Positions 9,045 through 41,530 of a DNA stretch of 64,000 bases are shown in pieces. Origin of the DNA: a virus (lineage: Duplodnaviria; Caudoviricetes). Below the pieces are notes generated by a model. The model did no database searches and was not told where the DNA came from. It saw only the letters and a list, made by a program, of their open reading frames with translations. The position numbers were made by a program, and so were the translations under genes. The stretch is taken from IMG/VR virus record IMGVR_UViG_2558860250_000001, positions 41,266 to 105,265 of that record. The stretch is one strand, 5' to 3'. Each line of letters begins with the position of its first letter. Position 1 is the first letter of the stretch.

Positions 9045-9872
9045 TACTATAACACCTCCTATGTGTTTATATCAATTGTATGATATAAAGTTGGGTGCGT
9101 CAATAGTATAAAGCGAGGTTTCCGAAAAAATATTATAATAAAAATTTGGACGGTGAATAATCAACCGAGGTTGGTGATGAGAGGCGCGTATAAGTTTGAC
9201 GTGCTTTAGTATGCTAAAGCGATGTTTTCCAAAATACATATTATCGAGCTTTTAGGCTTGTCTGCGAAATTTAAACGAAATAACAATTATTACCAGAAGT
9301 TTGACCCCCACTACACTAAATGTGAGTAACTATAACGAACGTATGTTCTGTTGGACACACTTTTTGTCGCACTTATATAGGAAGAAACTCGTCATTTTTC
9401 GCATCGAGACCCCTGAATATGTCCACTTTTGTACGGCTTTTCTACTTCGTTAAAATACGATACAGCGAAGTTGGTGCCATTTCTCACTTTTTACTTGACA
9501 AATGTACGCACGTATGCTGCCTTGTATGTGTACGATGCCGGTGTGGTTGACTATTACACATTGCTATCCCATTGCGGTGTGGTGCGAGGTTTTGACGAAA
9601 CGAGGGCTGGCGCGCGCGGGAGCTAGACTTTTTTCACCTTTTACACACTCATCATCACACTATGATTTACGCCACATACACTATACACAGGGTGAATGAG
9701 GCCATAGAGGGGGATACCTTGACGCCTGGTAAGCGTGAGGATTCGTGGCGGGGTAGGGGGTGATATACGCAACAAAAAAACCACTGGCTATTGTACCAGC
9801 GGTATTGATTAAAAATCAGTCACCCATGTGTATTTCTTCTTGAGTGAATTTCATCAACAATTCGCCAGCCTG

Positions 9873-30157: not shown

Positions 30158-31008
30158 ACGAGTTAGCGTTGGTGGAAAGTCGCGATGTACGCGAGCGGTA
30201 CATGGAACGAGTTGATGTGTTGGACAAGGTTAAGGCGTTGACGATGTTACCGGATGATATGCATGTGGCGGCGAAAATGGTCGCGGATTACTACGAAGTG
30301 GACTACAACAACGTCATTAAGCCAGTAATCCACCGTCACCGTGAAGAACTTGATTCAGACGGCATGGTGGTACTACGTGGCGAGGAGTTAAAGAGATATA
30401 AAACAGAGTGGCAAAATGCCACCCTAACTGCAAGGTCGAATCTTACGCTTCTCCCTCGTCGAGCAGTCCTGAGAATCGGTATGTTGCTGCGTGATTCGGA
30501 AGTAGCCAAACAGGTTCGTACATATTTACTCAACGTTGAAGAGTTGGCGGCACCGGAACATAAGCAAGAAGCAGTGGATATGATGGAAGTGCCGAAGACG
30601 TTCCTTGAAGCACTAAAATTGGCGGTGTATTTAGAAGAAAAGCGCCAGGAACTATTGCTTGAGAATGGCGAGTTGAAAAATACAATATCTGAGATGCAGC
30701 CGAAAGTTGATGTATATGAGGATTTGGTTAGCGCAGAAAATTACATGACCATCGCTACAGTTGCTAAGTCGATGGGATGGGGACGAAATAAATTGTTCGC
30801 ACTTTTACGAGACAAGAATATTCTGCGACGAGATAACACTCCATATCAACGGTATATAGACAATGGATATTTTAGCATACGCATGGTGCCTAAACGCGTA
30901 GGTGATAAAATAGAAAACTTTCCACAGACAATTGTGAGTGCGAGAGGGCATGAGTTTATATACAACATCGTGTGTAAGCATAACGTATTTTATTTGAATA
31001 AGGAATAA
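30154..31008 (+). CDS. Phage antirepressor (KilA-C domain)
   Basis: RAVLRIGMLLRDSEVAKQVRTYLL; PKTFLEAL; GRNKLF..LR; PYQRYIDNGYF. Confidence 0.88.
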   Translation: MNELALVESRDVRERYMERVDVLDKVKALTMLPDDMHVAAKMVADYYEVDYNNVIKPVIHRHREELDSDGMVVLRGEELKRYKTEWQNATLTARSNLTLLPRRAVLRIGMLLRDSEVAKQVRTYLLNVEELAAPEHKQEAVDMMEVPKTFLEALKLAVYLEEKRQELLLENGELKNTISEMQPKVDVYEDLVSAENYMTIATVAKSMGWGRNKLFALLRDKNILRRDNTPYQRYIDNGYFSIRMVPKRVGDKIENFPQTIVSARGHEFIYNIVCKHNVFYLNKE

Positions 31009-31026
31009 AATTTACATTATAATATC

Positions 31027-31056
31027 TTGACATTCATATAGTATATATAATATAAT
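31027..31056 (+). promoter_or_regulatory. sigmaA promoter of the tracr/CRISPR/cas12f locus
   Basis: TTGACA (31027) -18bp- TATAAT (31051). Confidence 0.75.
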
Positions 31057-31088
31057 TAATATAGAAGGAGGGTGGAGAACAATAAATA

Positions 31089-31244
31089 GGGTGACTGGAC
31101 ACCCTTGAGCCGAGATTACAGTGGTGCGAATACATAGGTCAACGATAATATCAACGCACAATACACTCGGCAAGGTGAAATATCACCATCGTTTCGCGCG
31201 AAATGTGCGGAACCGACACATACAAATACATATGATACGGCAAC
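31089..31244 (+). ncRNA. Cas12f tracrRNA A
   Basis: Stems GGGTG/CACCC, GCCGAG/CTCGGC, GGTG/CACC and GTTTCGCGC/GTGCGGAAC; 31214-31244 is complementary to repeat A. Confidence 0.8.
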
Positions 31245-31245
31245 A

Positions 31246-31393
31246 GTTGCAACGTATAAATGTAGCATGTATGTGTTGCAGGTACGCACAATAATCAACG
31301 CTCCAACAGTCGGGATCGTTGTTGCAACGTATAAATGTAGTATGTATATGTTGCAGGTGAACGTATATATGCGACACACGTAATAAACACAAA
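31246..31393 (+). CRISPR. Mini-array A: two 37-nt repeats GTTGCAACGTATAAATGTAGYATGTATRTGTTGCAGG, one bounded spacer and one trailing spacer-length segment
   Basis: Repeats at 31246-31282 and 31321-31357 (2 mismatches); 38-nt spacer 31283-31320; 36-nt segment 31358-31393 before tracr B. Confidence 0.85.
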
Positions 31394-31549
31394 CGGTCAG
31401 CCGGGATGAGCCGAAGCCGAGAAGTGACGCTAGTACATAATGGTTGGTAAGTTAAATAAAGCGTCAACACTACAGGCAAGGTGCTATAGGCACCACCGTT
31501 CGCGCAAAATAGGCGTGAACCACTGTCATACATGTCACCGTAATTGTAC
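31394..31549 (+). ncRNA. Cas12f tracrRNA B
   Basis: Homologous to tracr A (AGCCGAGA, GGCAAGGTG, CACCA.CGTT.CGCGC); covarying stems TGACGCT/AGCGTCA, GGTGC/GCACC and GTTCGCGC/GCGTGAAC; 31521-31549 is complementary to repeat B. Confidence 0.8.
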
Positions 31550-31550
31550 A

Positions 31551-31721
31551 GTTGCAATGTATATGATGACTGTATGATTAGTGCGGAAACTCGTTCGATT
31601 CTTGTCGTCACTGCCACACACCTAGTTGCAATGTATATGATGACTGTATGATTAGTGCGGAAAAATAGACCTAGGAATTTTTTTCGTTTCCTTTGTTGTT
31701 GCAATGTATATGATGACTGTA
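31551..31721 (+). CRISPR. Mini-array B: repeat GTTGCAATGTATATGATGACTGTATGATTAGTGCGGAAA twice, plus a truncated third copy and two spacers
   Basis: Identical 39-nt repeats at 31551 and 31625; 24-nt partial copy at 31698; spacers 31590-31624 (35 nt) and 31664-31697 (34 nt). Confidence 0.9.
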
Positions 31722-31785
31722 GCGCGAACCATAAGTGATTGCAAAATGCCCACACTTTCGCGCCGAATAGGGAGAGTATAAATAA

Positions 31786-33129
31786 ATGATTGTTAAAACG
31801 ATGCCATATGAAATTATAAAGCCGTTGTCGTGTGATTGGGCTGTATTCGGGGAAATGCTTCGTAGACTAAGAGATGAGTCATTTAGAATAAAAAATTCTG
31901 CGATACAATATTTTTACGAAGATGATATTAAAAGACGGGAATTTAAAAAGAATAATGGTAGATTCCCTAAAAAAGGTGAATTCTATGGTTCTTCAGTATC
32001 CGTATATAATTATGTGCGCCCTGATGTAAAATATTCGGCGATGGGAAACGTTACCTTGATAAACCAATTAGTCAAAAGTGTATGGATTAAATATAAAGAT
32101 GATGTTGTAAAAAGAAATATGTCTATACCTAGTTACAGACCAAATAATCCGATTGAAATTAATGTTCAGTCCTTCAATTCGTTCGATTTTGGGCAAGCAT
32201 GTGTTAACTTGTTGTCAAGAAAGGGAGTTGAAGAACTCAAAAAGAAATTGTCGGAGGTAAAAAAGAAAAAGAATAAAACAGGTGGTGACGATAATCTAAA
32301 ATTTACGCAAGAACAATTGAATGGCATATCAACATCTGTCACATTTGCATTCAACCCTGGGAAAAACAATGCAAAACAAGTTTTAAATCGCATTATATCG
32401 GGCGAGTATAAATTATCATCGAGTAAAATCATATACAATGAGCGTAAAAATAAATGGATGTTGGCGGTCGCTTATAAATTTGAACCTAAAACAATCGAGT
32501 TAGACAAAAATCGCGTACTAGGCATTGATATGGGAGTTGTATATCCAGCTTATATGGCAGTGAACTACGATAAATACTGGAGAGATAGCATTGACGGGGG
32601 ACAGATAGAACAATATCGTAAAACTGTGGAGGCGCGCAGAAGAAGGCTGCAACGTCAAGCTGCTGTATGTGGCAATGGGCGTATTGGACATGGACGCAAG
32701 AAGCGAATGCAACCATTGGAGAAAATAAGCGATAAGGTGGCAAATTTCCGCAACACCGTAAATCATACATATGCGAAAAAGATTGTACAGAATGCCGTTA
32801 AATTGGGATGCGGTACGATACAAATGGAGGAACTGTCTGGTATAAATGAAAAAGAGACATTTCTAAAGAGGTGGACATATTTCGATCTGCAAAAGAAAAT
32901 TGAGTATCGTGCAAAGGAATATGGCATAGATGTTATAAAAATAAATCCCAAATATACATCACAACGTTGCAGTGAGTGTGGATACATAGATGAGCGAAAT
33001 AGACCAAAGGTACCCGACCAATCGAAATTCAAGTGTTTGTCGTGCGGATACGAAACGAACGCCGACTTCAATGCGGCGCGTAACATAGCGACACCATATA
33101 TTGATAAGATTATATCATTGAACAGTTGA
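31786..33129 (+). CDS. cas12f: Type V-F miniature CRISPR effector (AsCas12f1-like, 447 aa)
   Basis: RuvC-I LGIDMG, RuvC-II IQMEEL, RuvC-III NADFNAARNIA, zinc finger CSECG/CLSCG. YEIIKPL..DW..FG..LR, MSIPSY and GHGR.KR match AsCas12f1 as recalled. CRISPR and tracr are adjacent. Confidence 0.9.
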   Translation: MIVKTMPYEIIKPLSCDWAVFGEMLRRLRDESFRIKNSAIQYFYEDDIKRREFKKNNGRFPKKGEFYGSSVSVYNYVRPDVKYSAMGNVTLINQLVKSVWIKYKDDVVKRNMSIPSYRPNNPIEINVQSFNSFDFGQACVNLLSRKGVEELKKKLSEVKKKKNKTGGDDNLKFTQEQLNGISTSVTFAFNPGKNNAKQVLNRIISGEYKLSSSKIIYNERKNKWMLAVAYKFEPKTIELDKNRVLGIDMGVVYPAYMAVNYDKYWRDSIDGGQIEQYRKTVEARRRRLQRQAAVCGNGRIGHGRKKRMQPLEKISDKVANFRNTVNHTYAKKIVQNAVKLGCGTIQMEELSGINEKETFLKRWTYFDLQKKIEYRAKEYGIDVIKINPKYTSQRCSECGYIDERNRPKVPDQSKFKCLSCGYETNADFNAARNIATPYIDKIISLNS

Positions 33130-33313
33130 TTTTATATAATATAATTGATATAATTAAATTATAGGGAAGTGATACATATGGAACGCGATGCGCTACTTCG
33201 CATATTAGGCGATTTGCTGTTTGCGCTAGATGATGCTGACACGAGGTATGTTGGCTACATCAACTCACTAATTGTCGAAACGAAGAAAGCAATTTATTTG
33301 ATGGACACGGAGA

Positions 33314-34507
33314 GTGGTGCGATTGAGTCTGGAACGCAAACCGGATGAATCGGTGTTTGAGTACAAACTGCGCATATGTCGCGAGTTAGACGGAGTGAAA
33401 ACGTGGCAGGAGATAGCCGATATTGTCAACGATGAATTGGGTACGGAGTTTGGAGAGTCAGCCATACGCAAATGGTACGTGCCGATTAGACAGTACATGG
33501 ATTATCAACGTGACCATGGCAGCACAGACAATGAGTTGTTGCAACAGATTAAGGATGAACAGTTGCGACTGGAAAAGTTAAAAGTACAGGTGGCGGATGA
33601 ACGTCGTGCATATAAGGCAATAGTTCGTGAGTCGGCCAGGTTTGATAATATCATCGACAAGTTGAAATCGTCATTTGATGAGTTGGCGACACTTAAGCCG
33701 TTGGAGTGGTCGAAGCCACAAACGTACATATCGAATACAGATGGCGTGGTGCTATGGTCGGATTGGCACTACGGAGCATTCGCGGACAACTATTTCAACC
33801 AGTTTAACAATGATGTATTCAAGCGACGGTTGGATAAGTTGATATCTAAGACGATACAGTATGGCACGTTTAATGGGATCGAGACGCTACATGTGATGAA
33901 CCTCGGTGACAGTATAAGCGGCCACATTCACGTATCAACACGTATTCAGTCAACGGAAAACGTGATTAGTCAGACACAGCATGTGAGCGAGTACATAAGT
34001 GAAGCGTTAGTTGAGTTATGTAGACACTTTGGCAATGTAAAATATTATCATGTTCGTGGAAATCATGACAGAGTTAACCATTTATCTAAGGATACCAACA
34101 TTAGCGCAGAGTCATTTTCGGATTTGATTCCGTGGTATGTGTCGGCACGTACAGGACATGTACGCAACTTGGAAATCATGGAGAACCCATACGATGATGA
34201 GATTGCAGTTGCTGATGTACAGGGTCATATTTGTTTAGGAATCCACGGGCACAAAGATAAGTTGAACAATGTGGCGGCTGATTTAACGTTGATGTTAGGT
34301 GTGAAACCAGCGTCGATATTCTTAGGACATTACCATCACAGCGCTGAACGTGAATCAACTGGCGGAATTGATGTAATACAAAATCCATCGTACATAGGAA
34401 CCGACGAATACTCGCGCAACATACGCAAGACAAGTAAACCGGCACAAAAGATGCTGATATACTCACGCGATGAAGGCAGGATTTGCACATATAACATCGG
34501 GCTGTAA
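33314..34507 (+). CDS. Calcineurin-like metallophosphoesterase with N-terminal HTH/coiled coil
   Basis: SDWHYG, LGD, GNHDR, HGH, GHYHH. Confidence 0.85.
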   Translation: MVRLSLERKPDESVFEYKLRICRELDGVKTWQEIADIVNDELGTEFGESAIRKWYVPIRQYMDYQRDHGSTDNELLQQIKDEQLRLEKLKVQVADERRAYKAIVRESARFDNIIDKLKSSFDELATLKPLEWSKPQTYISNTDGVVLWSDWHYGAFADNYFNQFNNDVFKRRLDKLISKTIQYGTFNGIETLHVMNLGDSISGHIHVSTRIQSTENVISQTQHVSEYISEALVELCRHFGNVKYYHVRGNHDRVNHLSKDTNISAESFSDLIPWYVSARTGHVRNLEIMENPYDDEIAVADVQGHICLGIHGHKDKLNNVAADLTLMLGVKPASIFLGHYHHSAERESTGGIDVIQNPSYIGTDEYSRNIRKTSKPAQKMLIYSRDEGRICTYNIGL

Positions 34508-41131: not shown

Positions 41132-41530
41132 ATGCCACAGTACGATTGGGAGACAATGACTTTTGAAGAAAAACACCACCTTCTAGCGGAAAAAGTGATG
41201 GAGTGGACAGTTGGAGAGCACCCTGAATTGCATGGAACTGGACAGATGATGGTGGAGTATGAGGAGCCTGTGTACTTCCGACAGGATGGAACATTCCTCT
41301 GCGAATGTGAATGGTATCCGACGGAAGACATATCCGCAGCGTGGGAAGTGGTGGAGAAGATGAAACAGGACGGATGGTTGCCAAGTATTGAATACTTCGA
41401 AAAGGCGATTAGAAAAGGGTACGAAGTTACGATGGGCCACATGTCAGAGGACGCTCAATGGGCTATATCTGAAACGGCACCCGAAGCCATTTGTCTCGCT
41501 GCCCTGCGTGCAAAAGGAGTAGATGTGTGA
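41132..41530 (+). CDS. Phage ABA-sandwich (BC1872-like) protein
   Basis: PTEDISAAWEVVEKM...TAPEAICLAAL. Confidence 0.8.
   Translation: MPQYDWETMTFEEKHHLLAEKVMEWTVGEHPELHGTGQMMVEYEEPVYFRQDGTFLCECEWYPTEDISAAWEVVEKMKQDGWLPSIEYFEKAIRKGYEVTMGHMSEDAQWAISETAPEAICLAALRAKGVDV

Follow-up and report, generated by a model that had tools for sequence, protein, structure and literature searches.

Introduction

Type V-F CRISPR systems are frequent on plasmids and target phages and plasmids alike (Altae-Tran et al. 2023, PMC10691335). The absence of cas1 and cas2 is typical of the Cas12f1 branch, arrays usually lie downstream of the gene, and Cas12f1-related groups possess divergent CRISPR-like arrays that resemble omega-RNA arrays (PMC10691335). 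Dead Cas12f loci mixing full-length guides and arrays are also described (Hoffmann et al. 2026, PMC13472631). Here, we analyze a cas12f gene and its guide RNAs in a 64,000-nucleotide (nt) stretch of viral DNA (Duplodnaviria; Caudoviricetes), hereafter the window (positions 41,266 to 105,265 of IMG/VR record IMGVR_UViG_2558860250_000001), following up an earlier note made from its letters alone. We find that a gene for an AsCas12f1-like protein of 447 amino acids (aa) is preceded by two diverged cassettes, each comprising a scaffold that resembles a trans-activating CRISPR RNA (tracrRNA) and a two-spacer array. We put the probability at about 80% that this is an adaptation-less type V-F1 system with two guide cassettes, self-contained in a prophage and aimed at rival mobile elements.

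Among the closest described systems is that of AsCas12f1, a V-F1 effector of Acidibacillus/Sulfoacidibacillus (PDB 8j12, 7wju, and 8dzj). The two proteins share 42 to 44% full-length identity, and much more in the RuvC half. The systems have in common the catalytic residues, the 5′ architecture of the tracrRNA (AAGCCGAGAAGTG and CTCGG(Y)AAGGT), and a guide that lies 3′ of the repeat. Unlike AsCas12f1, the system described here is prophage-borne, its guide RNAs lie upstream of the gene, and its two diverged scaffolds are each fused to their own two-spacer array. It also differs in the hairpins of the scaffold 3′ half and in a 40-residue protein insertion around residues 155 to 195.

Repeated scaffold-guide units, the lack of cas1, cas2, and cas4, and a continuum from tracrRNA-array to fused guide are shared with the loci of PMC10691335 and PMC13472631. 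However, those reports deal mostly with nuclease-dead, sigma-E–linked proteins or treat arrays in passing, whereas here the nuclease is intact. Furthermore, unlike those long-repeat arrays, each prophage unit combines a full tracrRNA with a small true CRISPR array, and the two units have diverged in scaffold and repeat alike. A phage effector with a short array against competing mobile elements is also found in Cas12j (CasPhi) of huge phages and in the type I-F system of ICP1 (PMC11656645), although Cas12j works without a tracrRNA, ICP1 encodes a full class 1 system, and duplicated helper-RNA cassettes occur in neither. Likewise, virus-borne mini-arrays relying on host Cas proteins direct one or two spacers against other viruses (PMC11656645). 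Those mini-arrays use the host repeat, whereas the prophage brings its own effector and tracrRNAs. We rejected the possibility that it is such an array exploiting the host CRISPR system, as the host V-B repeat (GTCGGATCACTGAGCG...) bears no relation to repeats A and B, and neither of these has a copy elsewhere in the host genome. Second tracrRNAs in some Cas9 loci (bioRxiv 10.1101/2020.09.02.279885) also provide an effector gene with more than one candidate tracrRNA, but these belong to another CRISPR type, are predictions only, and lack diverged arrays of their own. A literature search found no paper on an active Cas12f that has two diverged cassettes of tracrRNA and array.

Two guide cassettes precede cas12f

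The locus occupies positions 31027 to 33129 of the window on the + strand, in the order promoter, cassette A, cassette B, and 447-aa gene. The promoter (31027 to 31056) matches the sigma-70 consensus TTGACA-18 nt-TATAAT at 12/12 positions and is the sole 12/12 site within 30800 to 33400; a promoter scan found no comparable site between the two cassettes. Scaffold A (31084 to 31245), recognized by a covariance model, alignment with the AsCas12f1 scaffold, and an in-cis fold, comprises stem 1, stem 2 (GCCGAG/CTCGGC), the AAGGT motif, two hairpins, and an anti-repeat (31208 to 31245). Repeat A1 (31246 to 31282; 37 nt), found by repeat search and folding, is fused directly to this anti-repeat. It is followed by spacer A1 (31283 to 31320; 38 nt), repeat A2 (31321 to 31357; repeat search), which differs from A1 by two mismatches, and spacer A2 (31358 to 31390), whose 3′ end is undefined and continues into scaffold B.

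Scaffold B (31391 to 31550), recognized by the covariance model, alignment, and pairing, contains AAGCCGAGAAGTG and ends in an anti-repeat (31513 to 31550). Repeat B1 (31551 to 31587; 37 nt) is delimited by repeat search and by the boundary of a spacer match. Spacer B1 (31588 to 31624; 37 nt), repeat B2 (31625 to 31661; identical to B1, repeat search), and the AT-rich spacer B2 (31662 to 31697; 36 nt) follow. A truncated third repeat (31698 to 31721) retains the 5′ 24 nt only and lacks the guide-proximal part. The cas12f gene itself spans 31786 to 33129. This is the layout that the earlier note had proposed, down to the partial repeat, and all of its elements were recovered in place.

A direct-repeat search returned blocks of family A at 31246 to 31283 and 31321 to 31358 (two mismatches between copies) and of family B at 31550 to 31589 and 31624 to 31663 (identical), with a truncated copy at 31697 to 31721. 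Because spacer B1 matches its target over 37 nt, the repeats are 37 nt and the spacers 36 to 38 nt in length. Repeat B therefore ends in GCGGA and not, as had been claimed, in GCGGAAA. Host type V-B spacers (34 to 38 nt) fall in the same range.

The effector resembles AsCas12f1

In a structure-sequence search, the 447-aa protein matches AsCas12f1 structures 8j3r, 8j12, 7wju, and 8dzj at E values of 4e-105 to 1e-102. Other Cas12f structures match down to 1e-30, and ISDra2 TnpB at just 1.8e-6. The Pfam family Cas12f1-like_TNB (PF07282) is matched at 6e-24. In an alignment of 18 homologues, D248, E348, and D427 are invariant, as are C395, C398, C417, and C420, which form two CxxC pairs. The three acidic residues align in the structure match with the AsCas12f1 catalytic triad, which we take to be D225/E324/D401. 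The protein is full length relative to active AsCas12f1, with no C-terminal truncation. These results bear out both the AsCas12f1-type identity and the intact RuvC residues of the earlier note. From its sequence, the protein is a genuine type V-F1 effector closely related to AsCas12f1, and it is probably an active nuclease.

Homologues of this protein are annotated publicly as transposases, and the NCBIfam guided_TnpB superfamily model matches it at 178 bits, as would be expected if it were an IS200/IS605-type TnpB working with an omega RNA rather than a CRISPR effector. However, the IS200_TnpB model, with a cut-off of 425 bits, scores it at only 68, every one of its best structural relatives is a Cas12f, and cas12f is single-copy in the 4.35-Mb genome. 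The guide RNAs take the form of repeat-spacer units with a tracrRNA and are located upstream of the gene, the neighbors are phage genes, and one spacer matches a foreign element. We consider a transposon-type TnpB extremely improbable. The locus instead combines three of the features that define V-F1 members: a small Cas12f1-homologous effector with a RuvC and a zinc-finger TNB domain, an adjacent repeat-spacer array with the guide 3′ of the repeat, and, as judged at the sequence level from covariation, model, alignment, and pairing, a tracrRNA in which an anti-repeat accompanies a conserved scaffold.

Both scaffolds are conserved and pair with their own repeats

We aligned the stretches upstream of both arrays with their equivalents from eight related loci and built a covariance model on this alignment. 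Stems 1 and 2 are supported, with 83% of cells pairing compared with 64% in shuffled and 26 to 45% in slid controls, and compensatory changes occur in 9 of their 12 pairs. The model matches scaffold A at 31084 to 31177 (73.2 bits, E = 8e-16) and scaffold B at 31391 to 31483 (55.4 bits, E = 3e-11); these are its sole matches in the window and in the whole 4.35-Mb genome.

The published AsCas12f1 single guide RNA (sgRNA) scaffold (bioRxiv 10.1101/2022.10.20.513037) aligns with both. It has the 13-mer AAGCCGAGAAGTG in common with scaffold B and CTCGG(T/C)AAGGT in common with scaffold A. Thus, the two motifs that the earlier note had assigned to the AsCas12f1 guide are indeed present in it, and the comparison that the note had suggested, of both tracrRNAs with this scaffold and with a covariance model, gives a match for each. 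The 3′ halves of scaffolds A and B are unlike AsCas12f1, yet two hairpins are kept ahead of the anti-repeat. Between them, the two scaffolds are ~63% identical.

Pairing energies were computed for each anti-repeat, defined as the last 38 nt of the scaffold, and compared with those of 500 shuffled repeats. Anti-repeat A pairs with its own repeat at −29.4 kcal/mol (shuffled, −10.9 ± 3.2; 0 of 500 as low) and anti-repeat B at −24.7 kcal/mol (shuffled, −13.5 ± 3.3; 1 of 500 as low). Each anti-repeat therefore pairs best with its own repeat, and far better than with shuffled ones, in line with the cognate relationship claimed for each cassette. The anti-repeat continues directly into the first repeat, and scaffold and repeat together accordingly reach their minimum-energy fold as one long in-cis hairpin. 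The first guide of each cassette is, on this predicted fold, a natural single guide.

The cassette resides in a prophage of an Alicyclobacillus-type host

The window corresponds to C1:3019842-3083841 in a genome of 4.35 Mb and two contigs, C1 and C2. It lies in an island of 43% GC (C1:3.020-3.124 Mb) between flanks of ~56% GC, which identifies the element as a prophage of ~104 kb. Genes around cas12f encode an anti-repressor (Ant), Dam, an exonuclease, PhoH, a methyltransferase, a ribonucleotide reductase, and a DNA polymerase. Within this prophage, the cas12f system forms a self-contained cassette located in the early region.

A genome-wide search for cas1 and cas2 found none inside the prophage. 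The host Cas12b, a Cas4/Cas1 fusion, and Cas2 are encoded near 100 to 106 kb of C1, far from it, and a lone cas2-like open reading frame (ORF; C1:3889364-3889528, 71 aa, 52.6 bits) is distant from any cas1. The absence of both genes from the window, as first noted, thus extends to the entire prophage. The host chromosome is of Alicyclobacillus type, and a plasmid match also points to this genus. The repeat of its Cas12b array is presumably that of Alicyclobacillus acidoterrestris Cas12b.

The host array has six spacers. Spacer 1 (C1:106527-106561) matches C1:3109075-3109109 at 33/35 positions, a site inside the same prophage ~25 kb before the window start. The host appears, from this match, to hold an imperfect memory of the prophage that lysogenizes it.

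No direct repeats of at least 14 nt were found at the prophage ends in a search for attachment sites, megablast against phage records returned no relatives, and none of 45 family genomes contained a related prophage without the cassette.

One spacer matches a co-resident element

Spacer B1 is identical to C2:20796-20832 at 37/37 nt, and this match is the sole nucleotide similarity between the prophage and C2. The protospacer is flanked on its 5′ side by TTTC, which looks in keeping with the T-rich protospacer-adjacent motifs (PAMs) of type V systems; this single flank gives the sole hint of guided cleavage beside such a motif. It lies inside a DUF6744 gene that adjoins genes for DnaN-like and RavA-like ATPase proteins. 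C2 is a co-resident contig of 124.7 kb with 46.6% GC that encodes terminase-like and tape-measure-like domains, a partition protein, helicases, RecJ, SbcC, and replication functions. Its identification as a putative phage-plasmid-like element is moderately supported. Because one guide exactly matches a co-resident phage-like element, the system is probably a weapon in phage-versus-phage conflict, and the match gives substance to the previously suggested use against competing phages or plasmids.

Spacers A1, A2, and B2 have no match in their own genome, in 50,697 phage records, in 72,556 plasmids, or in IMG/VR, and spacer B1 has no exact match in IMG/VR. Matches of 22 nt to Klebsiella phages (E = 0.5) were discarded, as they fall in scaffold B (31510 to 31531) rather than in a spacer and are chance-like.

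Another species of the genus (G014; L188, G014:C220:4864-4900) carries a copy of the C2 region with 98.6% identity. This copy has TTCC, not TTTC, beside the protospacer, plus one mismatch inside. These changes could reflect escape or chance, and they are too few to call escape.

Multiple cassettes recur among relatives

The Cas12f family comprises 660 proteins at E values of 1e-40 or better, and relatives are common on viral contigs (161 stretches in IMG/VR). The covariance model matches one or more sites beside ~99 related cas12f genes, on the gene strand in all but one case. In most related loci, the only scaffold is found immediately downstream of the gene, in agreement with published array placement (PMC10691335). 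Two or three cassettes are present in about 7 of the ~99 loci, positioned upstream of the gene, downstream, or on both sides. Those with distinct repeats are L014 (three cassettes), L028/L112, L165, L154, and L162. Thus, the composite guide architecture is uncommon yet recurrent and has been touched on in passing in the literature. The novelty asserted in the earlier note was overstated, given this recurrence, the frequency of relatives on viral contigs, and the lack of cas1 and cas2 that typifies the branch (PMC10691335), and what it regarded as a new compact editor candidate is one more AsCas12f1 homologue.

The closest protein (P0002, contig L024) is 61% identical. Its locus repeats the layout of the window, with a promoter, a scaffold with two repeats, a scaffold with one repeat and a truncated repeat, and the gene. 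In L024, the downstream cassette is similar to cassette B, with a 72% identical 3′ half and the truncated repeat also kept. The upstream cassette has an AsCas12f-type 3′ half and an anti-repeat of just 8 nt, so its orthology to cassette A is not evident. The junction and leader ahead of cas12f (31722 to 31785), compared with L024 801 to 851, retain the blocks CGAACCA(Y)AAGTGAT and CGCGCCG before the start codon; the ribosome-binding site in the window is GGGAGAG.

We tentatively raise the idea, about which we have considerable doubt, that phage Cas12f1 systems without Cas1 and Cas2 might renew their guides by swapping whole cassettes, each of scaffold, anti-repeat, repeat, and spacer, between phages. 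If so, co-diverged scaffold-repeat pairs would allow a single transcript to supply one nuclease with several guide sets that are semi-orthogonal, and the window and L024 would be snapshots of turnover in which the downstream cassette is conserved and the upstream one replaced.

A model for a two-cassette phage weapon

In the mechanism that we favor, one strong promoter would drive a single transcription unit, giving a precursor of ~700 nt followed by the cas12f message. The precursor would contain two paralogous guide cassettes, in each of which the tracrRNA scaffold is joined via the anti-repeat to the first repeat. The first guide would adopt an in-cis fold, as engineered sgRNAs and omega RNAs do, and the second repeat-spacer unit would use that same anti-repeat for pairing in trans. 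By homology, a Cas12f dimer would assemble on one guide RNA, and it may load either scaffold. Double-stranded DNA matching the guide would then be cut next to a T-rich 5′ flank. The targets would be rival mobile elements, with guide B1 directed at the DUF6744 gene of C2.

Several observations weigh against this reading. Cross-cassette pairing (anti-repeat A with repeat B, −20.1 kcal/mol; anti-repeat B with repeat A, −18.6) is weaker than cognate pairing, yet still well below the energies of shuffled repeats. It is energetically plausible, so cassettes A and B may not be orthogonal. Scaffold B has a stem 1 that is weak by inspection, and its model score (55 bits) is under that of A (73 bits). 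Pairwise identities among the window and L024 cassettes are 49 to 70% and do not discriminate orthology. Three of the four spacers are without known target. Finally, with a perfect B1 target present in the same assembly, C2 is not being eliminated by the system, which may be blocked or, in the lysogen, silent; alternatively, the flanking TTTC may not function as a PAM.

The weakness of scaffold B, the two differences between repeats A1 and A2, and the truncated repeat that closes array B would also fit a locus with one functional cassette, the other being a decaying duplicate or recombination leftover that is transcribed and unused; a known target, moreover, exists for a cassette B spacer only. 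We judge this unlikely, since covarying stems and a cognate anti-repeat are kept in both scaffolds, the two-cassette layout persists in a lineage with just 61% protein identity, and several further loci keep more than one cassette.

The coexistence of C2 and its matching spacer in one assembly would be explained if the protein bound its target rather than cut it, acting as an RNA-guided repressor or a regulator of lysogeny or superinfection. Nuclease-dead or regulatory derivatives of Cas12f or TnpB are known in the wider clade (PMC10691335, PMC13472631). Such a role seems distinctly improbable here: the RuvC residues and zinc finger are intact and invariant among relatives, the protein is as long as active AsCas12f1, and the target lies within a coding region, not a promoter.

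An adaptation-less V-F1 system thus remains our preferred reading, under which a temperate phage would carry a complete CRISPR weapon in miniature, whose documented target is another phage-like replicon that shares the cell. Given the near-match of the host Cas12b array to the prophage, a single strain allows three genetic parties to be studied together. That a single protein has two diverged scaffolds reveals which of their parts are variable, which may be useful for AsCas12f-type editors and multiplexing. The locus also adds a data point on the interconversion of omega RNAs, tracrRNAs, and arrays.

Other features of the locus and its relatives

An Rfam search of the cas12f region matched no family. 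Antisense ORFs over the arrays (190 and 87 aa) were treated as spurious, as they too matched no family. Directly after the promoter, at 31066 to 31089 and just 5′ of scaffold A, a strong Shine-Dalgarno–like AAGGAGG is followed by a five-codon GTG ORF. The conserved leader block CGAACCA(Y)AAGTGAT resembles the hairpin-4/GAACC part of the scaffolds.

Among the relatives, the homologue of Bacillus phage Mgbh1 (40% identity) has no convincing scaffold match (12 bits). In L015 (genome G029), a scaffold-like RNA (9165 to 9310, minus strand; 53 bits) follows a 433-aa homologue with 38% identity; no CRISPR repeats are nearby, and it looks like an omega-RNA–style single guide. The second cassette of L154 (6797 to 7300) has, after the first repeat-spacer, a 3′-half-only scaffold (hairpin, GAAAC, hairpin, and anti-repeat) and then a further repeat type. 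The sole scaffold-like RNA on the strand opposite its cas12f homologue lies just downstream of the gene in L016 (10128 to 10197, minus strand; genome G044). In the Logan contig L025 (P0004, 48% identity), the order is gene, scaffold, and three-repeat array. This contig adjoins phage tail-tube and baseplate genes, which indicates another phage-borne copy.

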